Source of the DNA: a virus
Taxonomy: Duplodnaviria > Heunggongvirae > Uroviricota > Caudoviricetes
Virus record (IMG/VR): IMGVR_UViG_2541047816_000004
Location: 1 to 42,267 of that record
Length of the DNA stretch: 42,267 nt
Strand: one strand, 5' to 3'
Part shown: positions 3,482-30,571 of the stretch, piece by piece
How the letters are laid out: each line of letters starts with the position of its first letter
Numbering within the stretch: the first letter of the stretch is position 1
The notes under the pieces: generated by a model
Seen by the model: only the letters and a program-made list of their open reading frames with translations
Database searches by the model: none
Told to the model about the DNA's origin: nothing
Made by a program: the position numbers and the translations under genes

Positions 3482-6400
3482 TCAGCTAATCGTGATGCCT
3501 GCAGTGGCTTTCTTCATCACCACAACCAGCAAATCGCTGATACTTGCTGTGGGATACCAGTTATTTACCAGCCATGCTGACACCGAAAACTCCAGTGTCA
3601 TGTGACCGTGACCGGCAGGCATATCAATAACACCACTGTAAATCAGCGTATTATCCAGCGCGGTACGGTTATAAATTTCAGCACCGTTTTTCCGTACTAT
3701 CAGGCGGCATGACGAATAAATATCGTTATTCTCCCGCTCATGTTTAGCGCCGCTGAATGCCACCGCCGGAATAACAATCTGCCGGTCAAACGGCTGATCG
3801 TCATAAACCCTGACGGTGATGGTCCCTGATGGCCACCGTTCCGGTGCACGGGAGTCCCGGGGGAAAGCTTTGCCCACTGTTTTAACGAGATCGCCTTCAA
3901 TCTGGTTGGCGGACAATTTTCCCAGAACCCGACAGTTCTCGTTAATCGTGACGTTGTTGAGCGCCCCGGAGTTCGCATTCACGTTACCGCTGATATCGGC
4001 ATTTTTCGCCGTCAGCCGCCCGTCCGGTGTCAGGGAAAATGCCGGAGGATTACCGCCACTGGTAATGGTCGGAGCCGTCAGGCGTTTCAGGAACACGTCG
4101 TTCATGAATATCTGATCGCCCTGACCAACAAACATCGGCTTTGTGTTGCCATTCGCAGGATTAATCATCGCAATCCTGTCTGCCGCCAGCAGCACCTGAC
4201 TCTGCATACCGTCGGGGGTGTTCTCAATACCGGCACCAATACCCGCGATATAAAGGCGTCCATCCTGCATCTGCTGCAGCTTCACAGCCCACATGCTGTT
4301 CAGGTTATTATTTGTATCAACCTGAACCTTCTGTATCTGCTGGATTGCCGCACTCTGGTCTTCCAGTTTCTTATTGACAGTCTGCGTGATTTCATTGCTG
4401 ACATCCGTAATGGACGTCCTGATTTCAGCCAGGTCAGGCGCAAGCTGACCGTTATCAATCTGCGTCCACAGCTCCTGAGCCAGATGTGTTTTCCCTATCT
4501 CTCCTTTGAAAAAATCCAGGTAACCTTCCGCATCATCGCTCGCCCGGCCGACAGCCTCCACGAATGCCGATTTGCCAACGGTGTTCACACTGCGAACGTA
4601 AAAATAATAATCATGACCCGGCTTAATATTGATACTGGCAGCTATCCAGTACAGCGCCGTGCCAAGATAGCTGGCTGTGGTTTCAACCTGCCTGATATCC
4701 GCAATCCGCTTTTCCGAGAACCAGAACTCAAACTGTACCGTCGGATCATAAACGGCAAGATGCGGCGTGGCGGTTATCTGAAAATAGCCCGGCGTCAGCT
4801 CAATCTGCGACGGTGCTGCCGGTGCGGCAATCCGGAACGATACCGACGCCGGATCGCCCTGCTGCCCCCAGGCATTTGCCGCCCGGACCGTCAGTCTGTA
4901 GTTTCCCAGCGCCAGTTGCCTGAAGCGGTATGTGGTTTCCGTCGTCCGGGCCGTGCTGACCAGCCGCTCACTGCCGTCATCCGCTGCCACGGTCAGGCGA
5001 AGCATAAAGCTCACCCCCTTCACCACCTTCGGCGTATCCCAGCGCGCCAGCACCTGGTATTCCCCGCTGTCTGCGGTGACTTCTGCGGTCAGGTGCTGCA
5101 CTGCTGGCGGCGTGACACCGTTCACCGTTCCGCTCTGGTCGCCGTCAAAGTGCGCCCCGTTATCCACGATGGCTTCTTTCTCCGGCACATGCTGCACGGC
5201 AGTGATGGCATACGTGCCGTCATCGTTCTCACGGATACTCACACAGCGGAACAGGCGCTGGCGCAGCGTCGGCAGCTTCAGCCCCCATACGCTGTATTCG
5301 GCAACACCGTCAGGAACACGGCTCACTTTTACCTTCACGCCGTCGGTGACGGACTGAACCTCCACGCTGACCGGATTGCCACTTCCGTCAACCAGGCTTA
5401 TCAGCGTGGTACCGGAGGATGGCAGCGTGATTTCACGGTCGAGCGTCAGCGTCCGGGTCTGGCTGTTCACCGCCAGCACGCGACCACCGATGCTGATACC
5501 GGCATAGTCATCATCACAGATTTCAATGACATCGCCCGGTACATGGCGAAGCCCTTCGGCACCCACGCTGAAGTCCACGGTCTGCGTTTCCAGCAGTTCC
5601 GTTTTAATCAGCCACAGCCCGGCGCGGTGCGCCTGCCCCCGGCTGGTACAGCCAAAGGCATCCATCTTCGTGACGTTACGACCGTAACGGAGAATGGCCT
5701 GCGTATCTTCAACAAGCTCTGTCGCCGTCTCCCAGCCGTTATCCGGGTCAATCCAGTTCACCTCAACGGCATTATGGCGGTCCTTCAGGGCGCTGAAGCT
5801 GTAGCGGAACGGCGCGCCATCATCCGGCATCACCACATTACTGCGGTTATAGGTCCACACCTTATCCGACGGTCGGTCCTGCACGAACGTCAGCGTCTGC
5901 CCGTTCCATACCGGCATACAGCGCATCGCCGAACAGAAATCACTGAGCACATCCCACGCCTTACGCTGTGTGGTCAGGTAAGCGTTACAGGTGATGCGCG
6001 GCTCCGTACCACCAAAGCCATCCGGCACTGACTGATCGCAATACTGGCCGATGACATACAGCGCCCATTTGTCCACATCCGCCGCACCAAGACGTTTCCC
6101 CATGCCGTAGCGCGGGTGGGTCAGCATATCCCACAGACACCAGGCCATGTTGTTGCTGTATGCCGGTTTAAACGTCCCGTCCCAGATACCGCTGTATTGC
6201 CGCGTCTGCGGGTTATAGTTCGATGGCACCTGCAGAATGCGCCCGCGAAGATGATAATTACGGCTCACCTGCTGGCTGCCGAACTGTTCCGAGTCCACCT
6301 GCACGCCGACCAGTGCCGTGTTCGGGTAGCACTGTTTCACATCGATGATTTCAGTGTATGACGACCAGAGCGTTTTGTTCTGCAGCTGGTCTGTGGTGCT

Positions 6401-6961
6401 GTCCGGCGTCATCCTGCGCATCCGGATATTGAACGGTCGCGGCGGCAGGTTATCCACCACCACCGAGGCCAGATACTGCGACGTGGTTTTGCCCTTAATG
6501 GTGATGTCTTTTTCCGTCACCCAGCCACCGTTACGTTGTATCTGAACCAGCAGGCGGACTTCCGACGGATTCCGGTCACCCTTTGAGGTGGTTTCCACCA
6601 GTGCCTGCACACCGAAGGTAAAGCGCAGACGGTCGATGTTTGCAGACGTGATGGTCCGGGTGATCGGCGTGTCGTATTTCACTTCCGTACCCAGCACCGT
6701 CTCGGAACCGGAGGATTCAAATCCCTCCGGCGGTGTCTGCTCCTGCTCACCTGCCCGGAACACCACCGTGACACCGGAGATGTTGGTATTCCCCTCACTG
6801 TCCAGCACCGGTGTACTGTTCAGCAGCACGCTTTTTAATCCATCCACCGGACCTTCAACCGGCCCTTCGCTGATGGCATCGATCACACTCAGCAGCTGCG
6901 TGGACTTCAGGTTGTCCCTCGCTTCGCGCGGGGTATGCCCCTTACTGCTTCCTTTACCCAT
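3482..6961 (-). CDS. J: Host specificity / central tail fiber protein J
   Basis: 1159 aa; N-terminal two-thirds lambda J-like; C-terminal receptor-binding end differs in length from lambda J (1132 aa). Confidence 0.95.
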
Positions 6962-6971
6962 TCCTCACACT

Positions 6972-7002
6972 CCATAAACAACAAAGCCGCCCAAAAGGCG
7001 GC
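6972..7002 (-). terminator. Intrinsic terminator after the inserted lipoprotein gene, just upstream of the J RBS
   Basis: gccgcc-caaaa-ggcggc hairpin followed by TTTGTTGTTTAT on minus strand. Confidence 0.55.
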
Positions 7003-7027
7003 TCATGAGTTACGGCAGGATTAACTA

Positions 7028-7366
7028 TTATTTACATGCATTAACACTATCAGCAAAAATTTTTGGCGTTAATGCTGGTACACGTTCATAAAGAGTAAAA
7101 CTACTGCCATTTCCTGCTTTTTTGATATCAAGCACAACATCATATCCCCCCATAGCCTGTGGAACTAAAAGGCTTACCCCATTCTCAATAGGAAGGGATG
7201 TTATAGGTGTTCCATTACCAGCCCATTGTCTGGATATGCAGCCTGACAATTCATCAATATTTTTTAATGAATTACCTTCCATTACAGGTTTTCCGGATTT
7301 TACGTAATCCAAAGACTTACATCCTGTTAAGGCAATAATCGTGCAGAATAAAATCGTTTTGTTCAT
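7028..7366 (-). CDS. Small lipoprotein inserted between tail genes I and J
   Basis: MNKTILFCTIIALTGC lipobox signal; AT-rich; lambda has no gene here; ATG at M5 of track ORF. Confidence 0.5.
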   Translation of the reverse strand: MNKTILFCTIIALTGCKSLDYVKSGKPVMEGNSLKNIDELSGCISRQWAGNGTPITSLPIENGVSLLVPQAMGGYDVVLDIKKAGNGSSFTLYERVPALTPKIFADSVNACK

Positions 7367-7438
7367 ATAGCTAACCAATAGAATAATTATCAGTGTTCGA
7401 TATAAATATTAAATCAGTTAGAACATGAGTAAATAATA

Positions 7439-8080
7439 TTACCGCCCAATTACCACAACCTGACCACCATCCCCTTCATCTGCCGTGCTGATCTCCTGAG
7501 ATGCCACACGTGACCCCACGCGCATTTCACCGTACAGAACAGGCAGGACATTGCCCTGGGCAACCATGTTATCCAGTGAGGAGAAATAGGTGTTCTGTTT
7601 GCCGTTATCCGTTGTCTGTGTACGGGGAGTTCTGGCTTTCGGTGCCAGCATCTGCGCCACACCACCAAGCGTCATCGCCGCACCCATTGAAAAGAGAATG
7701 TCACTGAAAGCGATACTGATCCCCGGCATCCAGATTGCCGTAGCAATCAACGCCGCACCCAGCACCGCCTGAAACACACCGCCACTTTTTGCTCCCGCAA
7801 GACGCGGCACGATGTGGATCACGGCACCATTTGCCAGCGGCTCATTAAGACGGGATGATAATTCGGTTTCTCCTGCATCCCGCCCGGCAATCCGTACCTG
7901 ATACCAGCCATCGCTCAGTTTCTGACGAAACGCCGGGAGCTGTGTGGCCAGTGCCCGGATGGCTTCAGCCCCCGTTTTCACACGAAGGTCGATGCGGCGG
8001 CCAAATCGTTGCAAATCCCCGTAAAGGCAGATGCGTGCCATTCCCGGTGACGCCAGAGGGAGTGTGTGCGTCGCTGCCAT
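7439..8080 (-). CDS. I: Tail assembly protein I
   Basis: MAATHTLPLASPGMARICLYGDLQRFGRRIDLRV... matches lambda I as recalled. Confidence 0.9.
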   Translation of the reverse strand: MAATHTLPLASPGMARICLYGDLQRFGRRIDLRVKTGAEAIRALATQLPAFRQKLSDGWYQVRIAGRDAGETELSSRLNEPLANGAVIHIVPRLAGAKSGGVFQAVLGAALIATAIWMPGISIAFSDILFSMGAAMTLGGVAQMLAPKARTPRTQTTDNGKQNTYFSSLDNMVAQGNVLPVLYGEMRVGSRVASQEISTADEGDGGQVVVIGR

Positions 8081-12312: not shown

Positions 12313-12739
12313 ACCGGACTCCTCCTGCGATCCCTTCTGATACTGTCATCAGCATTACGTCATCCTCCGTCATGCCCGCCATATCCGGGGAAGCGGGGAT
12401 AACTTCATTTCCGTCCGGGTCAAAGCGGACGCCTCCGGTAAGCCCTGCCGCTTTCTGCATCAGCACATCATCTTCAGGCTCTTCGTCATCCTCACGCCGG
12501 TTCAGCAAACTGAAATCCAGCGGATGCATATCCGGATCGCTGAAAAACAGGCTGAGCACAGTGTACGTCAGCCCGGAAAAGTGCATATCCAGCAGAACAT
12601 CATGAAAATAATGGGTACTGTAAAAGCGGTGCCAGTCGGCATACTCCGTGGATGACATCCCGGCAAGCATGGCGCGCCAGTCAGGTCGCCCCATCTCTCG
12701 CGCCAGTTTCAGGGCAAAACTCAGCTCACCGTCGAACAC
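12305..12739 (-). CDS. T: T portion of the G-T tail assembly chaperone (expressed by -1 frameshift from G)
   Basis: ORF in -1 frame overlapping the 3' end of G. Confidence 0.8.
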   Translation of the reverse strand: MFDGELSFALKLAREMGRPDWRAMLAGMSSTEYADWHRFYSTHYFHDVLLDMHFSGLTYTVLSLFFSDPDMHPLDFSLLNRREDDEEPEDDVLMQKAAGLTGGVRFDPDGNEVIPASPDMAGMTEDDVMLMTVSEGIAGGVRYG

Positions 12740-13143
12740 TTTCCCGCAGAAACAGGCTCTGCAGGCCCGGCGTCCTCTGTCTGGTCAGGGGCATCATTCA
12801 CCACAAACTCATACATTCCGGACAGCCGGTACACCACGTTTTCAGCATGAGAAATTGCCTCTGTAGGCCAGGTGGTAAGCACTTCCTGCTCAATCTGTTT
12901 AACGGCTTCATTCATGGACGGCATCTGCGTCTTCTTCGGATGGTTATGCCACAGGGACATCGCCACCACAAAAGCGCCGGTTCTGATGGCGTCTTCCACA
13001 GTAAACTTCCGGTTGCTGTCTGACTCCGCCTGTTCTGCCTGCCGTTTCATCAGGGCGAGATGCTCAATACGCTGTAGGGCTGACAGTTCAGAAAGCGTGA
13101 CGGTCACGCCGTTATGTTCAAATGATTCGGTTTTCAGGAACAT
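12721..13143 (-). CDS. G: Tail assembly chaperone G
   Basis: 140 aa as in lambda G; MFLKTESFEHNGVTVTLSELSALQRIEHLALMKRQ. Confidence 0.9.
   Translation of the reverse strand: MFLKTESFEHNGVTVTLSELSALQRIEHLALMKRQAEQAESDSNRKFTVEDAIRTGAFVVAMSLWHNHPKKTQMPSMNEAVKQIEQEVLTTWPTEAISHAENVVYRLSGMYEFVVNDAPDQTEDAGPAEPVSAGKCSTVS
12740..12746 (-). other. Programmed -1 ribosomal frameshift slippery heptamer GGGAAAG at G/T junction
   Basis: Minus-strand GCGGGAAAGTG read from the sequence at the G/T overlap. Confidence 0.75.
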
Positions 13144-13158
13144 CGCTGACTCTCCGGA

Positions 13159-13899
13159 TTAACTGGCGGTGACGGTGATTTCTGCAACCGCAGCAAACTC
13201 ACCATTACCGGATACGACCGGAATGTTGACCTTGCCTGCAGCAACGCCGTTCACGGTGATGGTCATACCACTGACCGACACGGTGGCTTTTGTTTTATCC
13301 GCAGACACCGCACGGAAGCTCTTGTCGGTTGCGCCTTCCGGCTGGAATGCCACGGTCAGCGTGGTGCTCTGCCCTTTCACTACGGAAGCACTGGCTGGCG
13401 TTACCGTCATGCCGGTGGCCGCCGTCACCGTGCTGCGATCTTCTGCCATCGACGGGCGTCCCACATTGGTGACCTTCACCGTGCGGGTAATCACTTCCTT
13501 CGCCGTCACCGCCTTACCGATACTGCTGACCCAGCCACGGAACACATCGACCGTGCCGTTCGGGAAGCGGATTTTATAGGCACGGGTATCACCTTCATTA
13601 AACCACGCCAGCAGCGCCTGCTGCCCCTGCTCTCCGGGCATCCACGCCAGCGTGAAGCTGGTATCTCCGGCTGACTTCTGCCCCTGTCCGGTCGCGGTCC
13701 AGTCCGCATCTTCATCATCGAGATAACTGTCGTCATAGGACTCAGCGGTCAGTTCGCCGGGCGTCAGGTCTTTAACTTTAGCCAGACGCGACCAGTCAAC
13801 GTCTGAAAGCGGGTTCGCATAAGGGTCACCGTTCCCCTTATAAACCCACAGTGTGGTCCCGGCACCTTTCACCGGCATTGTTGGATTTGGTACAGGCAT
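13159..13899 (-). CDS. V: Major tail tube protein V
   Basis: [22 protein letters not shown]...; start at M11 of track ORF; Ig-like C-terminal domain. Confidence 0.9.
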
Positions 13900-13906
13900 A
13901 GCGTCC

Positions 13907-14302
13907 TCACATTTCATAGGTAATGACATAAGTCAGATCGGCTGAACTCCACAGGCCCGCATCATCGTCGCGCCGGTAGTCATAGCCACTGGCCACCATA
14001 CTGGTGATCAAATCTGACAGTGCCGGGATATCGCTCATCACCGGATAAATCCGGGACTCCATCCACGAATCCAGCTCTGAATCCGGCACCTGAGCAGGCA
14101 GGAAAACTTCAATATGCAGCTCCGCCTGCCAGGTATCGCTGTCCAGCTCTTCGCCCGTGTATTCAGCGCCGGTGAGATAAACGGCAATTGCCGGAAAATC
14201 CGCCTCATCAAAAACAGCGGGGCGACCATCAAAAAGCGTCGCCCCGGTGTCATGCTTCTCCAGTGCATCCAGTACGGCTGCACGGAGTTCAGTATGTTTC
14301 AT
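13907..14302 (-). CDS. U: Tail terminator protein U
   Basis: 131 aa as in lambda U; [33 protein letters not shown]. Confidence 0.9.
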
Positions 14303-14877
14303 CGCTTTATTACCATTCTCAGTTGATGCTGCAGCGCATAGCCCAGCTCTTTCGGAAGACGTTCACGCCGTATCCGTTCAATATTCTGTTTAAACGCCGT
14401 GGTAAGCGGCACCGCCATCGGGATTTTCACCACATCAATGGGGTAACGGTTTTTCCCGGCCACACGCTGCATGACATGCCACCGCCCATTTTTCAGTTGC
14501 TGAATAAACGCGCCGGGAATACGACGGTTACCCACCACAAGCACGCTGCCGCCACCTTTCAGGGATGAACGCTGCCCCTTTTTACGACGCCTGCGGCGGG
14601 ACAGGACAACCCGCGCATTACCCAGCTTGATTACGGGCAAATCCCCCCGGTTAACTTTGATTCTGGCCTGCGGATTTTTGACCGTGGCCCTTTTCAGCCT
14701 GGCCCTTTCCTTTACCAGTTTCCGGCGTACCTTTGTCTCACGGGCAACCTGTGACGCAGACTGCGATATCACGGATGAAGCAACGCGGTTAATGGCCATT
14801 GCGGCGGCACCAGGCACCGCCGTTTTGCTGATACGGCTGAGGTTTTCAACGGCCTGCTCAAGACCTTTTATGGCCAT
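14299..14877 (-). CDS. Z: Tail completion protein Z
   Basis: 192 aa as in lambda Z; lambda gene order. Confidence 0.9.
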   Translation of the reverse strand: MAIKGLEQAVENLSRISKTAVPGAAAMAINRVASSVISQSASQVARETKVRRKLVKERARLKRATVKNPQARIKVNRGDLPVIKLGNARVVLSRRRRRKKGQRSSLKGGGSVLVVGNRRIPGAFIQQLKNGRWHVMQRVAGKNRYPIDVVKIPMAVPLTTAFKQNIERIRRERLPKELGYALQHQLRMVIKR

Positions 14878-15253: not shown

Positions 15254-15649
15254 TTATTGCATTCTGGCCAGGCCGCGCTCTGTCATTTCGGCTGCCACAC
15301 CGGCAGAGACACGAAACGCCGTTCCCGGCAGCACAAATGCCACAGGTTCATCCCGCGTGGCGTGAAGTGCATCGGTATGCAGCGTCACCAGTGCCACAAC
15401 CGTGACCAGAACAGCCGTATCAGTCACGGTATCCGTCTGTGCTGATACCACCTCATTTTCATGTCCGGTCAGCGCATTTTCCGGGCTGACAGACGTGTCC
15501 TGACCGGCTCCGTCATCCTTGTCATCAAGCTCCTCTTCCAGCTCTGCCACACGGAGCGCCAGTTCTTCTTTCGTCCCCGTCAGGCTGACATCACGGTTCA
15601 GTTGCTCACCCAGCGACCGGAGACGGGCAATCAGTTCATCTTTCGTCAT
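15254..15649 (-). CDS. FI: DNA packaging protein FI
   Basis: MTKDELIARLRSLGEQLNRDVSLTGTKEELALRVAELEEELDD; start at M14 of track ORF. Confidence 0.85.
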   Translation of the reverse strand: MTKDELIARLRSLGEQLNRDVSLTGTKEELALRVAELEEELDDKDDGAGQDTSVSPENALTGHENEVVSAQTDTVTDTAVLVTVVALVTLHTDALHATRDEPVAFVLPGTAFRVSAGVAAEMTERGLARMQ

Positions 15650-18432: not shown

Positions 18433-22102
<3,670 letters not shown>

Positions 22103-22648: not shown

Positions 22649-22825
22649 TGTTCATTCCACGGACAAAAACAGAGAAAGGAAACGACAGAGGCCAAAAAGC
22701 CCGTTTTCAGCACCTGTCGTTTCCTTTCTTTTCAGAGGGTATTTTAAATAAAAACATTAAGTTATGACGAAGAAGAACGGAAACGCCTTAAACCGGAAAT
22801 TTTTCATAAATAGCGAAAACCCGCG

Positions 22826-22837
22826 AGGTCGCCGCCC
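22826..22837. other. cos: cosN 12-nt cohesive-end site (aggtcgccgccc = reverse complement of GGGCGGCGACCT), cosB toward nu1, cosQ to the right
   Basis: Exact 12-mer followed by cgtaacctgtcggatcaccggaaaggacc, the reverse complement of the lambda right end as recalled. Confidence 0.85.
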
Positions 22838-23036
22838 CGTAACCTGTCGGATCACCGGAAAGGACCCGTAAAGCGATAATGATTATCATCTACATATCAC
22901 AACGTGCGTGGAGGCCATCAAACCACGTCAAATAATCAATTATGACGCAGGTATCGTATTAATTGATCTGCATCAACCTAACGTAAAAACAACTTCAGAC
23001 AATACAAATCAGCGACACTGAATACAGGGCAACCTC

Positions 23037-23270
23037 ATGTCAACGAAGAACAGAACCCGCAGAACAACAACCCGCAACATCCGCTTTCCTAACCAAATGA
23101 TTGAACAAATTAACATCGCTCTTGTTCAAAAAGGGTCCGGGAATTTCTCAGCCTGGGTCATTGAAGCCTGCCGCCGGAGACTGTGCTCAGAAAAAAGAGT
23201 TTCGCCTGAAGCAAACAAAGAAAAGAGTGACATTACTGAATTGCTCAGAAAACAGGTCAGACCAGATTGA
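23037..23270 (+). CDS. Small basic hypothetical protein encoded next to cosQ
   Basis: 77-aa ORF MSTKNRTRRTTTRNIRFPNQMIEQINIAL...; DNA closely matches lambda right-end sequence as recalled. Confidence 0.4.
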   Translation: MSTKNRTRRTTTRNIRFPNQMIEQINIALVQKGSGNFSAWVIEACRRRLCSEKRVSPEANKEKSDITELLRKQVRPD

Positions 23271-23327
23271 AGCAATTTAGATAATCGTGCAGACTACGCC
23301 CCCTCATATCACATGGAAGGTACTACA

Positions 23328-23738
23328 ATGGCTCAGGTTGCCATTTTTAAACAAATATTCGATAAAGTGCGAAATAATTTAAACTATCACTGGTTTTATT
23401 CTGAACTAAAACGTCACAATGTTTCACATTACATTTACTATTTAGCCACAGAGAATATTCATCTTGTTCTTGAAAACGATAATACGGTTTTAATAAAAGG
23501 ACAGGGTAAGGTTGTAAATGTAAGATTTTCAAAAAATAAATGCCTTATAGAAGCCACCTTAAAAGGATTCAAATCAGGAGAGTTATCATTTTACGAATAC
23601 AGGAAAAATCTTGCTACAGCAGGGGTTTTCAGATGGATTACAAATATCCACGAAAACAAAAGGTATTACTATACCTTTGATAATTCATTACTCTTTACTG
23701 AGAACATTCAGAACACTACACAAATATTTCCGCACTAA
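23328..23738 (+). CDS. YbcV/YdfO-like (DUF1398) prophage protein
   Basis: [17 protein letters not shown]...[29 protein letters not shown] resembles YbcV/YdfO as recalled. Confidence 0.6.
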
Positions 23739-24045
23739 ATCATAACGTCCGGTTTCTTCCGTGCCAGAACCGGACTCGCTGGCATGATGAAATATGTGTA
23801 CCCGGTAACCCCGGTGTGCATCGTTTTTGATTATTCCCCCACACTTGTGCAGAAGGAGTTCCCCGTCAGGCTACAGTCATAATTAATGCAAGAGTACAGC
23901 GACGATACAGCGCACAGAAATAAATCAGGTATCCATTGACTTCACAAAGACGGTGCATAGCATCGACAGGAGTAATTGCGTAAATTGAACTCTTGGCACA
24001 CTTTAGCCACCGGCGAATCTTCAGCGGATTATCCTTGGCCGGTTT

Positions 24046-24510
24046 TTATCTGAGGCATTGCTCTCGAATGTATAGCTGTGCCCCTTCAAGTTGTTTTTGC
24101 ATTATTATCAGTCGCGCTCTGAGGGTGAAATAATCCCGTTCAGCGGTGTCTGCCAGTCGGGGGGAGGCTGCATTATCCACGCCGGAGGCGGTGGTGGCTT
24201 CACGCACTGACTGACAGACTGCTTTGATGTGCAACCGACGACGACCAGCGGCAACATCATCACGCAGAGCATCATTTTCAGCTTTCGCATCAGCTAACTC
24301 CTTCGTGTATTTTGCATCGAGCGCAGCAACATCACGCTGACGCATCTGCATGTCAGTAATTGCCGCGTTCGCCAGCTTCAGTTCTCTGACATTTTTGTCG
24401 CGCTGGGCTTTGTAGGTAATGGCGTTATCACGGTAATGATTCAGCCACAGACTAAGCGCACCACAGGCCACCAGCAGGGCAATGATGACCACGCACAGTA
24501 CGCGGTTCAT
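24046..24510 (-). CDS. Rz: Spanin inner-membrane subunit Rz
   Basis: [45 protein letters not shown] matches lambda Rz as recalled. Confidence 0.9.
24108..24290 (-). CDS. Rz1: Spanin outer-membrane lipoprotein Rz1, embedded in Rz in the +1 frame
   Basis: [20 protein letters not shown] lipobox plus proline-rich [16 protein letters not shown]. Confidence 0.85.
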
Positions 24511-24808
24511 TTCACCACCAGCGTATCTGACCGATGAAATAACCGGAGGCCATAATCACAAACACCAGCCAGATAAGAATGAACTTCCAGGTGGATAATT
24601 TTTCAGCCATCACTCGAATCTCCCGAATCAGTTTGCTAAAATCAAACACACTTTCTCCTTTGACTTTTCCGGAGTCAGGAAACACAAAACCCCGCTTGGT
24701 GCCAACAAACGGGGTTTTTACTTTTATTCACTTACGTTTCGCCACTTCGCAGGATTTCATGTTATCCGCCCGCGTGGCCATGCCTTATTTTTCAGCAAAA
24801 TATTCTGC

Positions 24809-25342
24809 TTATCTGTCGATACCCCAGCACGCCAGCGCGCTCTCCTGGTCACGACGGGATACCTGACCGTAGCAGTTGTTTGAACGAATACGGCAGTCTC
24901 TGCCACCGTCCTTAATCCACCAGCGAATCGCCTCACACGCTCCCCTGCGATCACCTGCATTAATTCGTTTGTAAAACGTCGACGGGAAACACTTACCGGG
25001 ACCAATGTTGTACGGACAGAATGACGCGATCCCCGCTTTCTGGGGTTCGCTCAATGGCACTTTGATGTTTTTCTCCACCCATGCCAGCGCCTTATCACGC
25101 TCAATGGCGTTGACCTGGTCGCATTTTTCCTTCGACAGTTTCATACCGGGAAAAACGGGTTTTCCATCCACCATCGTGGCCCCCCGACAGATGGTCCAGT
25201 TGCCGGAACCATCGCGGTATGCCGTTGTGTGGTTACCCTCTTTTTCGTCCAGAAACTGGTCAAGTATCTGAGGAGCAGACGCGCCTGCAGCAATCAGCGC
25301 CAGAACAGCAGCTGACAGGCCGTATTTGATTTTTACGCTCAT
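24809..25342 (-). CDS. Endolysin, lysozyme-like (GH24 family) with N-terminal signal-anchor-release (SAR) segment
   Basis: Hydrophobic Gly/Ala-rich N-terminus LSAAVLALIAAGASA followed by lysozyme-like domain. Confidence 0.75.
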   Translation of the reverse strand: MSVKIKYGLSAAVLALIAAGASAPQILDQFLDEKEGNHTTAYRDGSGNWTICRGATMVDGKPVFPGMKLSKEKCDQVNAIERDKALAWVEKNIKVPLSEPQKAGIASFCPYNIGPGKCFPSTFYKRINAGDRRGACEAIRWWIKDGGRDCRIRSNNCYGQVSRRDQESALACWGIDR

Positions 25343-25435
25343 GGATATTTATCAGGATGCTACCAATGAAAGATACTGGAAAGCCAACTGCAAAAAGCTA
25401 ACAACCTGTAATCGAGTTATCAGAACTGTTAATTT

Positions 25436-25696
25436 TTATGGTATACCGCGCCTCTGAACAGGGGCGCGTTTCTGGCAACAGCTCGTCCCCTTCACATAAC
25501 CCGGCAGCAACATCCAGGAAGACCTGGCTGCTGCCTCATAAAACTCCAGCGCGGCACCTTCAACACGGTCCAGCGAGATGTCCAGGTCAAAAATTTCACC
25601 GTCAAAGCGTTTTTTGTCCCGTAACGCTAAAGTTACCGTAACTTTATTCTCAAAATTGCGGATCCCTTTCACAATCAGTTCATAGTTTTGAGTCAT
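25436..25696 (-). CDS. Hypothetical protein between holin and endolysin
   Basis: 86-aa ORF in the late operon; no family recognised. Confidence 0.4.
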   Translation of the reverse strand: MTQNYELIVKGIRNFENKVTVTLALRDKKRFDGEIFDLDISLDRVEGAALEFYEAAARSSWMLLPGYVKGTSCCQKRAPVQRRGIP

Positions 25697-25700
25697 TGAA

Positions 25701-25916
25701 TTACTCTCCCCGTGCAGCCTTACGACGGTCCTCTCTGATTTTGAAATACAGGTTAGTCAGATATGTCAGCAGCCCAAACAGCAGACTCCCCAGCACGCCT
25801 ATTGCCGCCCACTGAGACGGGGAAACCCTGTCCAGCAACTGCAGGAACCAGTAGCCCGTTCCCACCGCTGACGTAGTGTATGACACACCTGTTGTGATTT
25901 TTTCCATCTGGTCCAT
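25701..25916 (-). CDS. Phage-21-type class II holin (pinholin) with dual-start motif
   Basis: [45 protein letters not shown]...[17 protein letters not shown] resembles S21 as recalled. Confidence 0.85.
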
Positions 25917-26223
25917 ACCCCGTCTCCCGTTATCCGGAAGCTGACAACAATAAAAAAGCCACCAGTTAACTACTGATGGCTCTGATAACTCATGCAAGCG
26001 TCTCAGACGATCCACTGACACTATCGGTGAGTTTAACGATACCTTCCATTTGACTGGCTCACTTTTTATGATGATGCCGGTGCATTTATCTCCAGCACCA
26101 GACTTTCTATCTCAACGCCATACGTTGCATTTTTGGTAATATCCGTCAGCGTCAGTGCATTTAGTCCCACTGCCAGACTGTCTTTTATGGCCTGGAATGC
26201 CGGGCCAGTACGATGACGTAGTA

Positions 26224-26427
26224 TCACTCCGGCTCAGTTGCACCGCTGACCACCACATCACCTTCTGCTGCAATCGCCTGCATCAGGGTATAAGGGGTTA
26301 TGGCCACCGGACTACCAAACGGCTGCCAGCCCTCTTTCAGTTTATGTGTCAGCTTTTCCGCAAGATCTGACGGCGGCGCCGCCCTGACAACATCATAGTG
26401 TTTAAATGCCATGGTTCTTTCCACCAT
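26224..26427 (-). CDS. Hypothetical protein upstream of the holin
   Basis: 67-aa ORF with GGTGGAAAG SD-like sequence upstream. Confidence 0.45.
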   Translation of the reverse strand: MVERTMAFKHYDVVRAAPPSDLAEKLTHKLKEGWQPFGSPVAITPYTLMQAIAAEGDVVVSGATEPE

Positions 26428-26672
26428 CTGAAAAATAATTCTTTAAAATGCCTGACATGTAATACAGAAAAAAACACAAAACCATACCTTAAATAAAAAC
26501 CTGATTATCAAGCAGATATGCATGGATAAACTACAAGACGAGATATAAACCACCCTGTATTTAAATAAACAATAAACAACATCAGAAAAATAATTCTGCT
26601 CTATGGTTTAATTCAAAAATATCATTTATACTTTTCAGAACATCACCAGCAAGGCATAAACAAGGAAAGTAA

Positions 26673-27008
26673 ATGAAGTGGATTGTGATTGATACAGTTA
26701 TCCAGCCATCATGCGGAATATCTTTTTCAGTCATATGGAGTAAAATAAAATTAATAATCTGGTATCAATCGGATGCTTTCTTACCTCCTGAAAGTATATT
26801 TACACTGACTCACACAGGCATCATGCTCAATAACAAAGTGCTGCCTGTAACCATTTACAACGTAGTACCATTCAATAAAACATTCTGGAATTTAATCAAA
26901 AACAGCCAGGAATGCCCTACAAATACAGATAACGTATTGAATGAATGCTTTAATAACCGTTGCACTCTGCAAATATGTCCTTATGGACTAAAACAACAAA
27001 GTCCATAA
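26673..27008 (+). CDS. Hypothetical cargo protein, AT-rich, antisense to the late operon
   Basis: 111-aa ORF with AAGGAAAG SD 5 nt upstream of ATG; several Cys; no family recognised. Confidence 0.5.
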
Positions 27009-27455
27009 GGAGTTTACTCACATCTGACAAAATCAATATAAACAGCCCCTCCGGAGAGGGGCTGGAGAGTGGCGCTATGTGCCATTGCATGGTGCCGGGT
27101 GCCTCCCGGTGAATTCAGTACCAGCACCTGAATCCGCGATTATCCCATATACCTACTCGCTGATTGCCCCACCGCACAGGGGGATTCACCATGCCAGTTT
27201 CTTTTAACAAACTCCCCGCAAACCAGACAACAGTCAACCGCCTGAATTGTGAAGTATTTAAAAATTTCTCCCGCTAACTGATACCCGGCTAACAGTCTGG
27301 CGTTTTCTTTTTCAGCAACGGGAAAGCAACAACCACCACACCCGCCACCAGCACACCGTCAGCCAGCACTGACATTATCCGGCTGCTGCAATGCCATTCA
27401 CAAAAACAGTAAGCAATCACTTTTTACCGTAACAGGTGATAATCCAGATATGTAT

Positions 27456-27809
27456 CTACCCCAGATGAGTAATCCGAAGTTCATCCATACCACAGGTCCT
27501 GGCTATTCTGTTGTACTCCTGAACAAGAGCAAATAATTCTGAATTAGCAACCATGAACTCATCGCAAACCCTCTGTATAGCATCACTATTCAGAATAATA
27601 ACGTCTCTTCCCGAAAGACGATCAGGAGTACAGAACAAAACTGTCAAACGGCTGAAGGCCTTTGCTCGTGCTGCATTGACTATATCAATACGCTGCCTAA
27701 GGATGAAACACCCCGACGCCTCATCAATATTCACTCTACCCACACCATATGAATGATAAATATTTAATGCTGAAAAAACCATTAGACCGTATAACAAATA
27801 TTCAATCAA
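27456..27809 (-). CDS. Hypothetical ORF downstream of the tRNA cluster (uncertain)
   Basis: 117-aa ORF with TTG start and no clear SD. Confidence 0.3.
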   Translation of the reverse strand: MIEYLLYGLMVFSALNIYHSYGVGRVNIDEASGCFILRQRIDIVNAARAKAFSRLTVLFCTPDRLSGRDVIILNSDAIQRVCDEFMVANSELFALVQEYNRIARTCGMDELRITHLG

Positions 27810-27919
27810 TACTTAACAGAACTTTTATTTTTGACAAACATATAATATTTTCAACAATATCCTGAGCCAGGTATATTTCAGTATAAGGCTCTGCCGGAAG
27901 GAATCTGGAAGAATGAATA

Positions 27920-27996
27920 TGGCGCGCTGTACTGGATTCGAACCAGTGACCGATTGCTTAGAAGGCAATTGCTCTGTCCGGCTGAGCTAACAACGC
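27920..27996 (-). tRNA. tRNA-Arg (anticodon TCT)
   Basis: Hand-folded cloverleaf: 7-bp acceptor, GCTC/GAGC D-stem, ATTGC/GCAAT anticodon stem, loop CTTCTAA, TTCGAAT T-loop, encoded CCA. Confidence 0.8.
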
Positions 27997-28009
27997 TGAA
28001 TACCGATAA

Positions 28010-28090
28010 TGGACCGCCATCGGGGACCCGCCCCCCGCACCAACAACCCTGTTATCGTGTCGTCTGCTCTTCCTGATAAGCTAATGGCGG
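28010..28090 (-). tRNA. Degenerate tRNA-like sequence (possible tRNA pseudogene)
   Basis: Perfect 7-bp acceptor stem CCGCCAT/ATGGCGG plus T and CCA, D- and T-stems present, but no canonical anticodon arm and aberrant T-loop GGCGGGT. Confidence 0.3.
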
Positions 28091-28097
28091 TTTGTGA

Positions 28098-28173
28098 TGG
28101 TGGCCCTTGCTGGATTTGAACCAGCGACCTGGCGATTATGAGTCGCTCGCTCTCACCACTGAGCTAAAGGGCC
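28098..28173 (-). tRNA. tRNA with CAT anticodon (Ile2-like or Met)
   Basis: GGCCCTTTAGCTCAGTGGTGAGAGCGAGCGACTCATAATCGCC...GGTTCAAATCCAGCAAGGGCCACCA, resembles ileX/ileZ as recalled. Confidence 0.8.
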
Positions 28174-28210
28174 GGGAGCAGAATAATAACGGTCCATAAT
28201 TAATTCCGCA

Positions 28211-28236
28211 ATAAAAAACCCGCTCGGCGGCGGGTT
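28211..28236 (-). terminator. tR-prime-like intrinsic terminator ending the short late leader transcript
   Basis: Minus-strand AACCCGC-CGCCGA-GCGGGTT hairpin followed by TTTTTTATT. Confidence 0.65.
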
Positions 28237-28283
28237 GTAGAAACTCTTCTAACGTCAGGCATAAAACGCCCATCATTATGACG

Positions 28284-28311
28284 AATTTACCACAGATTCC
28301 GGAAAAATCAA
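28284..28311 (-). promoter_or_regulatory. PR-prime-like late promoter (-35 TTGATT, 16-nt spacer, -10 TAAATT), probable qut region
   Basis: Consensus-like hexamers immediately downstream of the Q stop and upstream of the terminator. Confidence 0.5.
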
Positions 28312-28316
28312 CCTTG

Positions 28317-29138
28317 TTACCTAGTTACCTTTTTTAACTGCCGCTCAGCCCATGCTTCTTCAATATCAAACCGGGTCACCAGCGCATCATAGAATTTCTT
28401 AACTGTTTTTTCCCATGACGCGCGTGTTATCTGGTTTGTCACCTCGCATATAGCATTAAATGCCTCCGTTGATGGTAGTCTTTCATAGCCACGACCACCA
28501 CAACGCTGGCAGTCTCTGATAACAGGCATACCACGTTTTACCGACTCTTCACGATGAATGGCGACACCACGCCCACGGCAATCCTTACAGGCGGTGGAAA
28601 CCTCACCCTTTCCGCCACACTCCGGACAGGCAACTTTTACCACCTCCCTGACTTTTTTCCATTCTTCCCAGTAAGACGGATACACACCTTTCGTACACTT
28701 TGCCCATACCGGCGGCTTACCATCCGGATACTGGACCTTGTTTGTAAAAACTACGCTTTCAATAAATTTTTCCCCATAGCAACAAGGGCACTGCTTTTTA
28801 CTCGCTGCGCTGCGGGCATAATCCTCAAAAGCGTACGAAGCCATAATGCGCATCACTAACGGTTTTATTTCTGCCGGAAGTTTTCTCAACGCCGCCACAC
28901 GATCGCACCGACTGAGTGCATAATCTGCCAGTAATTCTGTTGCCCGCGCCCTGTCATTCATACTGATGCCCATTTTCCCCAGGAACGCAGAAAACCCCAT
29001 CTCAGCCCGATTCTGTGTCATGCCCTGCGCGGCCATCACATCAGTGATACTCAGCGCATCTTTTGACGTTGAGGCCGATACATCGGTCAGGCCAGGGGAT
29101 TTTGGGGAGTAGTATTTCGGTAAATCTTCCAGTTTCAT
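28317..29138 (-). CDS. Q: Late antiterminator Q (lambda Q family with Cys-rich insertion)
   Basis: KYYSPKSPGLTDVSASTSKDALSITDVMAAQGM and CxxC pairs; C-terminus ...YDALVTRF..VTR like lambda Q. Confidence 0.8.
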   Translation of the reverse strand: MKLEDLPKYYSPKSPGLTDVSASTSKDALSITDVMAAQGMTQNRAEMGFSAFLGKMGISMNDRARATELLADYALSRCDRVAALRKLPAEIKPLVMRIMASYAFEDYARSAASKKQCPCCYGEKFIESVVFTNKVQYPDGKPPVWAKCTKGVYPSYWEEWKKVREVVKVACPECGGKGEVSTACKDCRGRGVAIHREESVKRGMPVIRDCQRCGGRGYERLPSTEAFNAICEVTNQITRASWEKTVKKFYDALVTRFDIEEAWAERQLKKVTR

Positions 29139-29509
29139 TTTTTGACCTGCTCTTCATGCATTATGGGGTAAATCTTCACCCCCATACGTCCACCAGATAC
29201 TGGCTGACCACGAACGATATTGATTTCATCAAACTGCTCATCGTCCATTAACACTCCCGCATGCGTCAGCGCATCCAGCGGTGCTTTCAGGATATTGTCC
29301 AGGTCGCGACGACGCTTATCCGGTGGCTCTGCAATCACCTTTATCGCCAGCCTTCCGGACAGGCTTAATTTCAGCCGCTGCTGGCGAACAATAAGCGCCA
29401 CAGCCCGGCGATAACGCTTTCCCTCCTCCGAGATAAAATATGTGCTGCCACGGCGTCGCCAGTAAGTGTTCACCGTCGGCGGGTAAGGTAAAACCAAATC
29501 TATGAGCAT
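29135..29509 (-). CDS. rusA: Holliday junction resolvase RusA
   Basis: PDKRRRDLDNILKAPLDALTHAGVLMDDEQ shares the RusA catalytic region motif. Confidence 0.8.
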   Translation of the reverse strand: MLIDLVLPYPPTVNTYWRRRGSTYFISEEGKRYRRAVALIVRQQRLKLSLSGRLAIKVIAEPPDKRRRDLDNILKAPLDALTHAGVLMDDEQFDEINIVRGQPVSGGRMGVKIYPIMHEEQVKK

Positions 29510-29521
29510 CAGTCACCTCTT

Positions 29522-30571
29522 TTACCCAAGCACGCCAGTTGCAAAGGCGTGATCAAGAAAACGAAAAATTAAATCAACCTGAGAACCATGCTTTTGTTCG
29601 AACGCCAGAGGATCCGCATGAAGCTCGTTGTGATGCTCCCGACACAGCGGTAGCGTGAAAATATCGTGAGATTTTGTCCCCATTCCGCCCTGACCATGAC
29701 CAATCAGGTGATGGGGATCGTCGGCTGGCTTACCACAACACGCACACGGCTGTGTCTTCACCCAGCGTGTGTATTTCTCGTTAACCCAGCGGCGACGTTT
29801 AGGTCGTTTCATGAAAGATTCCGGAGACTCAGGATCAACGGCAATGCTGACCACCGTCTTTTCCTGTGGTGGGTTCTGTTGCTGGTGGGCGTGAGGCAGC
29901 GGCGCAATATTTTTTGTGCGCTGTTTCAGTATGCTGGTGGCTGTCTGCTCTCCCGGTATGATGTCGCTCTCGCGGTAAAGCGAGCGGATTTTCTCCGCCG
30001 GTAATCCCAGTGAGCGGCGTAATACAGCCTCCGGTAGTGCGTCCGCTACCTGATTGCAGACCGCCCACCAGGATAATTCAGCCAGAGATAATTCACGCTC
30101 CTGCGTACCGCTTATTGCGTGACCGATGACGTCAATCATCCATGCTGACAGGTTTTGATGAGCAAGTTGCTCGAGTGATTCGGATGTCTGGTCACGCAGC
30201 TGGTTGTCGCAGTGCCAGCACAACACCATTGCGCCGGTACCATAACGGTGAATGACGGTTTCGCTGTGATGATAATCGCCGTGTGGCCACTGGCAGGATT
30301 TAACATGGCGCAGTAACCAGTCAGACAATGCGCCAGCGCCACCAGCAGCACGAATCACTCGTTCGTCGCTGAAAAATGGCAGTAATGATTTATCCTCCGC
30401 CAGCGGCTGGCGAACGGCAGGAACGACCCCGGACGGCAGATTACGCATGCTTTTCGGTTCCGGCTCCACCAGTACCCGGGTATTGTGGAATACCGGCATG
30501 GATTCACGGCCCGGCTTAACGATCACCAGCCCGAGTTCCGGTACCAGAACAGGTCGAAGTAATACCCGCAC
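29522..30571 (-). CDS. DUF968-domain protein (YdfU-like)
   Basis: 349 aa; C-terminal Cys/His-rich CACCGKPADDPHHLIGHGQGGMGTKSHD...LCREHH. Confidence 0.6.
   Translation of the reverse strand: MRVLLRPVLVPELGLVIVKPGRESMPVFHNTRVLVEPEPKSMRNLPSGVVPAVRQPLAEDKSLLPFFSDERVIRAAGGAGALSDWLLRHVKSCQWPHGDYHHSETVIHRYGTGAMVLCWHCDNQLRDQTSESLEQLAHQNLSAWMIDVIGHAISGTQERELSLAELSWWAVCNQVADALPEAVLRRSLGLPAEKIRSLYRESDIIPGEQTATSILKQRTKNIAPLPHAHQQQNPPQEKTVVSIAVDPESPESFMKRPKRRRWVNEKYTRWVKTQPCACCGKPADDPHHLIGHGQGGMGTKSHDIFTLPLCREHHNELHADPLAFEQKHGSQVDLIFRFLDHAFATGVLG

Follow-up and report, generated by a model that had tools for sequence, protein, structure and literature searches.

A short open reading frame (ORF) for a lipoprotein lies between the tail genes I and J of a lambda-like Escherichia coli prophage, and the question raised by this locus is what such a gene does there and, in particular, whether its product acts on the receptor recognized by the J protein encoded next to it. 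The stretch of DNA analysed, 42,267 nucleotides of a tailed phage of the Caudoviricetes (IMG/VR record IMGVR_UViG_2541047816_000004), is called the window below, and all of the features described in it lie on the minus strand. Our best guess, to which we assign a probability of roughly 0.4, is that the lipoprotein is a receptor-independent phage-exclusion or envelope factor. An earlier note on this DNA, made from the sequence alone, had proposed instead a superinfection-exclusion factor that blocks the phage's own receptor, and the comparisons presented here leave exclusion as the most plausible class of function and argue against the receptor-blocking route.

Evidence on this point comes from the C-terminal, receptor-binding end of J. 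Across the IMG/VR loci, the same lipoprotein (99-100% identical) is encoded upstream of at least four J C-terminal types, which are mutually 15-65% identical over their last 170 amino acids, and the first 900 residues of J downstream of the insert are 89-98% identical. No J of the lambda/LamB type was found among the C-terminal types that accompany the lipoprotein. Because a near-identical protein occurs with at least four J C-terminal types, these comparisons indicate that the lipoprotein is not tuned to the receptor of its own phage; co-variation with the receptor-binding domain was not seen, and the own-receptor reading was downgraded after this survey. The position of the gene points in the same direction, as it adjoins the 5' end of J, at a distance from the part that encodes the receptor-binding domain. 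The C-terminal 172 amino acids of the window J are approximately 98% identical to the J proteins of the VT1-Sakai and PPompW prophages. In the IMG/VR loci J is strongly mosaic, with lengths of 1084, 1131/1132, 1137 and 1159/1160 amino acids, and several copies are truncated.

The anatomy of the insertion is given by comparison with insert-free sites. Gene I (tail tip, 213 amino acids; Pfam Lambda_tail_I, E 4.4e-24) appears in the ORF list at 7439-8080, with its TAA stop codon at 7439-7441, and gene J (tail tip/host specificity, 1159 amino acids) occupies 3482-6961 and carries six J-specific Pfam domains, among them FNIII-A_GpJ, Phage-tail_3, Ig_J, Phage_Tail_Tip and Ig_GpJ_C. The ribosome-binding site (RBS) of J, GGAGTGTGAGGA, lies at 6962-6973. 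The I-J spacer measures 477 nucleotides in the window versus 60 in lambda, and 60 bp also in phages cdtI and mEp332, which bears out the statement of the earlier note that lambda has no gene at this junction. Alignment to cdtI and mEp332, in which both flanks match and the gene is missing, sets the bounds of the insert at approximately 7011-7438. This cassette of about 428 bp has a G+C content of 0.343, and values of 0.34-0.39 extend over 7000-7450 versus about 0.57 in I and J, so that its description as AT-rich also holds; homologues found in other slots are likewise lower in G+C than their flanks. The insert is accessory AT-rich DNA placed between the stop codon of I and a hairpin resident in the I-J spacer. 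As extra DNA between adjacent genes with a deviant base composition, it resembles a moron in the sense of Juhala and Hendrix.

The ORF itself occupies 7028-7366, begins with ATG and encodes 112 amino acids plus a stop codon. The precursor starts with MNKTILFCTIIALTG and continues after the predicted cleavage site with CKS, which gives a mature form of 97 amino acids, 10.3 kDa and an isoelectric point of 7.9. A TTG located four codons 5' of the ATG would yield 116 amino acids; all homologues begin at the MNK/MKK position. The signal peptide and lipobox (L-T-G-C) span 7319-7366, with the codon of Cys16 at 7319-7321. With the lipobox pattern [LVI][ASTVI][GAS]C and the +2 residue read for sorting, the sequence agrees with the PROSITE-type rule, having Lys3 in the n-region, an uncharged h-region, Cys16 and Lys at +2, and Cys16 is invariant in 25 homologues, so that the lipoprotein of about 112 amino acids named by the earlier note stands. 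In the Lol sorting rule, Asp at +2 is the signal for retention in the inner membrane. Since the +2 residue is Lys and not Asp, the protein should be processed by Lgt and Lsp at Cys16 and then be placed on the periplasmic face (inner leaflet) of the outer membrane.

Several lines of evidence suggest that the ORF is maintained. In IMG/VR, 55 of 58 copies are intact and a few are frameshifted; the 55 intact E. coli copies fall into 13 alleles, with 11 synonymous and 6 non-synonymous changes, giving a ratio of non-synonymous to synonymous polymorphism (pN/pS) of 0.16. Together with the invariant residues and conserved lipobox of the family and its spread across phage backbones, both described below, this ratio indicates that the ORF is a real gene under purifying selection. 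RefSeq gives the gene as 112 amino acids in E. coli O104:H4 (WP_001332187.1, locus 20136-20474) and as 84 amino acids, with no signal peptide, in strain AR_0017 (WP_001300316.1, locus 20219-20473). The signal peptide is often missing from the RefSeq annotation, and the 84-residue form conceals that the product is a lipoprotein.

Just before the J RBS lies a terminator-like hairpin with a T-rich tail (6974-7004; stem from 7004 to 6984), which was recognized by a terminator scan, by folding and by its homology to lambda, cdtI and mEp332. Its stem has 9 bp, of which 6 are G-C pairs, and is followed by TGTTGTTTAT; the fold z-score is -3.1. Phages lambda, cdtI and mEp332, all of which lack the insert, have a homologous hairpin, AAACCGCC-nnnn-GGCGGTTT, followed by TGTC(A/G)TTTATGGAG, and the distance from the hairpin to the ATG of J is equal in all three and the window. 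Because these gene-less phages have the homologous hairpin in the same position, the alignments identify it as a resident feature of the lambda-type spacer that was not carried in by the insert. The earlier note was therefore correct in placing a hairpin and T-run before the J RBS, and its reading of them as the insert's own terminator was ruled out by the alignment with the empty sites of cdtI and mEp332 and with lambda; the insert in the window has no terminator of its own such as a moron would bring. Homologues in the slots between K and I and between chaperone T and the tape measure gene H, unlike the window gene, do bring terminator-like hairpins. For example, the Klebsiella homologue has AACCCGTCTTATGACGGGTT followed by T7 (also picked up by the terminator scan), the Enterobacter homologue has ACCCGCTCCGGCGGGT followed by T7, and a homologue in a metagenomic phage has GGCCCGCCTTGTGCGGGC followed by TTTTC.

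Conserved among lambda (15440-15505), cdtI and mEp332 is a G+C-rich hairpin with a T-run, lying in the 60-bp spacer between I and J and midway through the late operon. It looks like an intrinsic terminator that a Q-modified polymerase would read through, and its candidate roles are to stabilise RNA or to insulate J in the prophage. When 6700-7700 was scanned with Rfam, the one match was sub-threshold and GcvB-like, at 6976-7201 on the minus strand (19 bits versus a gathering score of 42, E 0.1); it is most likely a chance effect of an AT-rich stretch followed by a terminator, here the 3' half of the ORF with the hairpin after it.

The lipoprotein matches PHROG 914, a family of unknown function, over its full length (E 7.3e-33, residues 1-112 aligned to positions 1-118 of the 118-position profile). 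Searches of Pfam (E up to 1) and NCBIfam returned no family for it, and the same databases together with PADLOC, searched with distant relatives, returned only a VirB7 match (E 0.08) that is an artefact of the signal peptide. Some distant members carry the Joint Genome Institute (JGI) label 'YceK', which was set aside, as none of the 25 distant members scanned has a Pfam match. A sequence search of the PDB gave noise at the level of signal peptides and no relative, and a literature search by accession, locus tags and PHROG identifier found nothing on this gene. In public sources it is named 'hypothetical protein', 'Lipoprotein' or 'Phage protein', and its exact sequence is present on at least 1000 contigs. 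An exhaustive profile search recovered 125 cluster representatives at E < 1e-3, nearly all of 105-125 amino acids, and homologues 44-62% identical to the window protein come from Klebsiella, Enterobacter, Citrobacter, Salmonella, Kluyvera and Jejubacter.

Cys16, Cys43, Gly63 and Cys111 do not vary in an alignment of 25 members whose identity to the window protein is 21-52%. A lipobox is present in 138 of 149 family proteins; among these 138, a Cys lies within the last four residues in 130 and Asp occupies +2 in none. The codon of Cys43 lies at 7238-7240 and that of Cys111, the penultimate residue, at 7034-7036; because these two invariant cysteines are paired in an exported protein, they probably form a disulfide. 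An AlphaFold2 model built from a 20-sequence alignment (predicted local distance difference test, pLDDT, 86.5; predicted template modelling score, pTM, 0.77) has a short helix followed by strand-helix-four strands-helix, a predicted compact two-layer alpha/beta domain. A Foldseek search with this model against the PDB returned nothing at E < 1e-3, and the best fold match in BFVD is an uncharacterised protein of Pseudomonas phage phiAH14a that is itself a family member. Most of the fold neighbours are modules that bind ligands or lipids (Flpp3, START/Aster, Bet v1 and CoxG). The conserved positions, namely two Cys, a Trp and a Gly turn, are of a structural and not a catalytic kind, and since no catalytic-looking residues are conserved, a binding function is more likely than an enzymatic one. 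PHROG 914 is an uncharacterised lipoprotein family, new within a known kind of element, namely prophage tail-operon cargo.

The distribution of the gene is that of an accessory element. Of 5426 complete E. coli genomes, 334, O104:H4 2011C-3493 among them, contain the complete 601-bp region, whereas 4086 match the I and J flanks only and lack the insert. A tblastn search with the window protein gave no match in 50,697 phage records, and other family members used as queries found distant members there only in phiAH14a, Fraca and LMessi. A scan of species-representative genomes found one locus only, in Kluyvera, from which we conclude that the gene is accessory and missing from most reference genomes. 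Across the IMG/VR loci the nucleotide identity of the insert is 97.7-99.8%, compared with 87-100% for I, 90-97% for K and 92-98% for J; the lower divergence of the insert than of its flanks suggests that it has spread across backbones.

The orientation of the gene is always that of the tail genes, and its slot varies by lineage. The E. coli allele occupies the I-J slot (59 IMG/VR loci), the Klebsiella and Kluyvera types lie between K and I (4 IMG/VR loci), and the Enterobacter type lies between chaperone T and the tape measure gene of an HK97-like prophage (6 IMG/VR loci). In the Klebsiella oxytoca type the gene is directly downstream of a giant J, as the last gene of the prophage; in metagenomic phages it lies between K, followed by variable cargo (DUF6414 or DUF4760), and I; and further distant members are found at the prophage end, after the lysis genes. 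Dyella-like Xanthomonadales carry a chromosomal member in the conserved synteny PpnN - X - GspH - UvrB. This pattern is that of a widespread small lipoprotein domain with chromosomal versions, which has been repeatedly captured into the accessory slots of lambda-type siphophage tail modules.

Several of these loci have further features. Escherichia phage Fraca (LR597645.1; a Hendrixvirinae isolate) encodes a distant member of 111 amino acids with the lipobox LLMGC between K and I (locus 6965-7300) and a separately annotated cor downstream of J (locus 12543-12776). Phage phiAH14a (NC_074659.1; locus stretches 7001-7948 and 22701-25310) has two copies of the tail-tip gene I, gp32 and gp84, which are 79% identical. 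Its homologue of the window lipoprotein, gp33, adjoins gp32 in the early-left operon downstream of the repressor, and the annotated start of gp33 cuts into the signal peptide. The K-I slot of phiAH14a holds a different lipoprotein of 140 amino acids, gp83, which has only the signal peptide and a motif after the Cys in common with the family. The K-I slot is a cargo hotspot (locus stretches 6910-7963 and 1335-1844, and 23548-24180 in phiAH14a), where phages that are otherwise syntenic have DUF6414, DUF4760, the cysteine-rich 210-residue gp82 or small ORFs just upstream of the lipoprotein, and none of these cargo genes has a match in PADLOC. In O104:H4 2011C-3493, the annotation records a frameshift in the tail protein gene that holds the position of the major tail protein (locus 13562-14312), and this prophage copy may, to judge from that annotation, be without functional tails. 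Downstream of J in O104:H4 and AR_0017 (locus approximately 24000-30300) are an Ail/Lom family gene, a side tail fibre gene with its assembly gene and, on the opposite strand, a class I S-adenosylmethionine (SAM)-dependent methyltransferase gene; the prophage is integrated in ompW, next to the trp operon.

The proposed function follows from three of these observations. Outer-membrane placement, slots used by exclusion genes and indifference to the J domain together favour, as our best guess, an exclusion or envelope factor that acts independently of the receptor. The lipoprotein would act from the periplasmic side of the outer membrane, where it may disrupt either a shared component of the envelope or a step that lambda-type infections have in common. 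Its action would not be to block the particular receptor of its own phage's J, and its gene would be transcribed at least with the late tail operon. Exclusion is the most plausible function class because two of the four slots of the relatives hold proven exclusion genes elsewhere: the slot between T and the tape measure gene holds the HK97 gp15 exclusion moron (PMC3594210), and the slot downstream of J holds cor and the validated Lpp021 and Lpp010 (PMC11893012).

A number of observations weigh against this proposal. Such guilt by slot is weak evidence, as the same slots hold cargo that is not related to defence. No similarity to validated exclusion proteins was found by sequence or fold searches, the window protein has no match in PADLOC, and the chromosomal homologues with conserved synteny in Xanthomonadales show that the fold has a role outside phages. 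Exclusion conferred by a prophage would need expression in the lysogen, and scans of the coding strand upstream of the gene, in the window and in three other contexts, found no sigma-70 consensus promoter. The 72-nucleotide AT-rich leader 5' of the ORF (7367-7438) contains only weak promoter-like matches and lacks a good Shine-Dalgarno sequence; of the relaxed promoter matches, TTAATA-15 nt-GATAAT (7412 to 7386) is the best, with agreement at 9 of 12 positions and a short spacer. Autonomous expression in the lysogen is putative because there is no consensus promoter and the Shine-Dalgarno is poor, and transcription with the late tail operon is the sole route that this sequence guarantees.

The alternative that survives best, though we consider it unlikely, is a host-fitness or lysogenic-conversion lipoprotein similar to Bor, with no phage target, in which a small periplasmic binder of ligands or lipids would alter the envelope and with it traits such as serum or detergent resistance or stress tolerance. 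The chromosomal members in Dyella and relatives and the ligand- and lipid-binding fold neighbours are consistent with this explanation, as are the presence of the gene in pathogenic lineages such as O104:H4 and an AT-rich composition like that of many conversion genes. However, the enterobacterial copies examined were all found within lambda-type tail modules or at the J end of such a module, the protein has no match to Pfam Lambda_Bor, and the lack of a consensus promoter for lysogenic expression counts against conversion as well.

A second, distinctly unlikely alternative makes the lipoprotein a late helper of the phage's own cycle, as a partner of the tail-tip protein I, as a lysis or release factor, or as a factor that keeps progeny from being lost on envelope debris. 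It would fit with a gene co-oriented in the late operon that lacks a consensus promoter, and with the repeated proximity to I, since I directly follows the gene in four lineages (Klebsiella, Kluyvera, Fraca and metagenomic phages) and directly precedes it in the window, and the phiAH14a homologue travels with the second copy of I. The gene is nevertheless dispensable, being missing in lambda, cdtI, mEp332 and most E. coli I-J junctions, and tails assemble in the cytoplasm, whereas the window protein is predicted to be exported.

The reading of the earlier note, that a gene adjoining the receptor-binding gene and resembling Cor and Llp blocks the phage's own receptor, fares worse again and appears improbable. 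Here a Cor/Llp-type lipoprotein would bind the periplasmic face of the receptor of its own J and prevent J from binding, as an outer-membrane-type lipoprotein encoded inside a tail-tip gene cluster might do, and validated cases exist in Llp and FhuA (PMC9586334), Rtp45 and LptDE (PMC12685063), and Lpp021 and Lpp010 (PMC11893012). The association with divergent J C-termini described above speaks against it, as does its reverse, in that PPompW and VT1-Sakai have the J C-terminus of the window and the lipoprotein has no match in the 50,697 phage records. The adjacency to J loses its force in that relatives also lie between K and I, between T and the tape measure gene, and downstream of J, and the window gene is at the 5' end of J. 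The resemblance also failed to hold, as the family profile meets the Cor of Fraca and Lpp021 only over the signal peptide, and neither Llp nor Rtp45 appears among the PDB sequence matches or the PDB fold matches listed. The mature protein has 97 amino acids compared with about 60 in known exclusion lipoproteins, and Fraca has both a family member and a separate gene annotated as cor.

Less probable still is one specific mechanism by which a receptor-independent exclusion factor could work, in which the lipoprotein would wait at the periplasmic face of the outer membrane for the first tail-tip proteins that cross it, would trap either the gpI plug or the C-terminal piece of the tape measure protein (gpH) bound to gpI, and would so stop the formation of the trans-envelope channel. 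In the lambda tail tip gpI is a trimeric plug, whose hydrophobic helices have been proposed to insert into the outer membrane upon receptor binding (PMC11101478, PMC12617516). Interception of gpI would explain the repeated placement next to I, the gp33-gp32 pair of phiAH14a and the indifference to the J domain. Finally, the idea that the ORF is decaying or without function, on a piece of foreign DNA, as the missing promoter and strong RBS, the inconsistent RefSeq lengths and the few frameshifted copies might suggest, is hardly credible given the intact copies and low pN/pS, a signal peptide, lipobox and two Cys kept down to 21% identity, and a confident structure model.

Whichever of these explanations applies, prophage tail-operon cargo is a known source of exclusion and conversion functions in which few families have been characterised, and this family is common in E. 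coli, the O104:H4 outbreak lineage included, with relatives in Klebsiella, Enterobacter, Citrobacter, Salmonella and Kluyvera and in Pseudomonas phages. If the lipoprotein does confer exclusion, its point of action would lie past receptor binding and on the outer-membrane side, and this would bear on host range in phage therapy of Enterobacteriaceae. To our knowledge, no mechanism has been described for exclusion of this type. If it is a conversion factor instead, it becomes a candidate modifier of the envelope or of virulence in pathogenic E. coli. The comparison with empty sites also corrects the view of the locus, in that the I-J hairpin is a conserved lambda feature separate from the insert.

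Among known systems, Cor (phi80, N15, T1, HK022), Llp (T5) and Rtp45 (Rtp) are likewise phage-encoded lipoproteins of the inner leaflet of the outer membrane from the tail or receptor-binding region. Their mature forms are of approximately 6-7 kDa, compared with the 10.3 kDa of the window protein, its predicted globular alpha/beta domain and its probable disulfide. Validated receptor-blocking lipoproteins have precursors of 60-82 amino acids, are encoded at the 3' end of the receptor-binding gene and track the receptor (PMC9586334, PMC12685063, PMC11893012); when the window lipoprotein is set against Llp, Rtp45, Lpp021 and Lpp010, neither the size, nor the 3' position, nor the tracking of the receptor holds. 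The genes for Lpp021 and Lpp010 of the mEpimmI coliphages (PMC11893012) are likewise lipoprotein genes in the K-I-J structural cluster, and their exclusion has been shown experimentally. They encode 72 and 82 amino acids, respectively, lie just downstream of J on the opposite strand and confer exclusion that follows OmpA or LamB, and Lpp021 has the signal peptide alone in common with the window family.

Other proteins resemble the window protein in fold or in setting. The Francisella lipoprotein Flpp3 (DUF3568; PDB 6pny and 9nlt) is a structural neighbour at 6-12% identity and a Foldseek E of 9e-3; the Pfam profile of DUF3568 gives no match, and with this low structural identity to Flpp3 the window protein is assigned neither to that family nor, by its Pfam profile, to Lambda_Bor. 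Bor/Iss of lambda is likewise a small outer-membrane lipoprotein of a prophage and accessory cargo, but it lies near the lysis genes and gives serum resistance. Another parallel in setting is HK97 gp15 (Cumby et al. 2012; PMC3594210), which is likewise encoded by accessory DNA within a tail operon and whose exact slot, between chaperone T and the tape measure gene, is occupied by the Enterobacter homologue. It differs in being an inner-membrane protein and not a lipoprotein, with its own promoter and terminator and known expression from the prophage; the two are compared here by slot. HK97 gp15 excludes phages without blocking a receptor, and it has chromosomal relatives (YebO), as does the family of the window lipoprotein.

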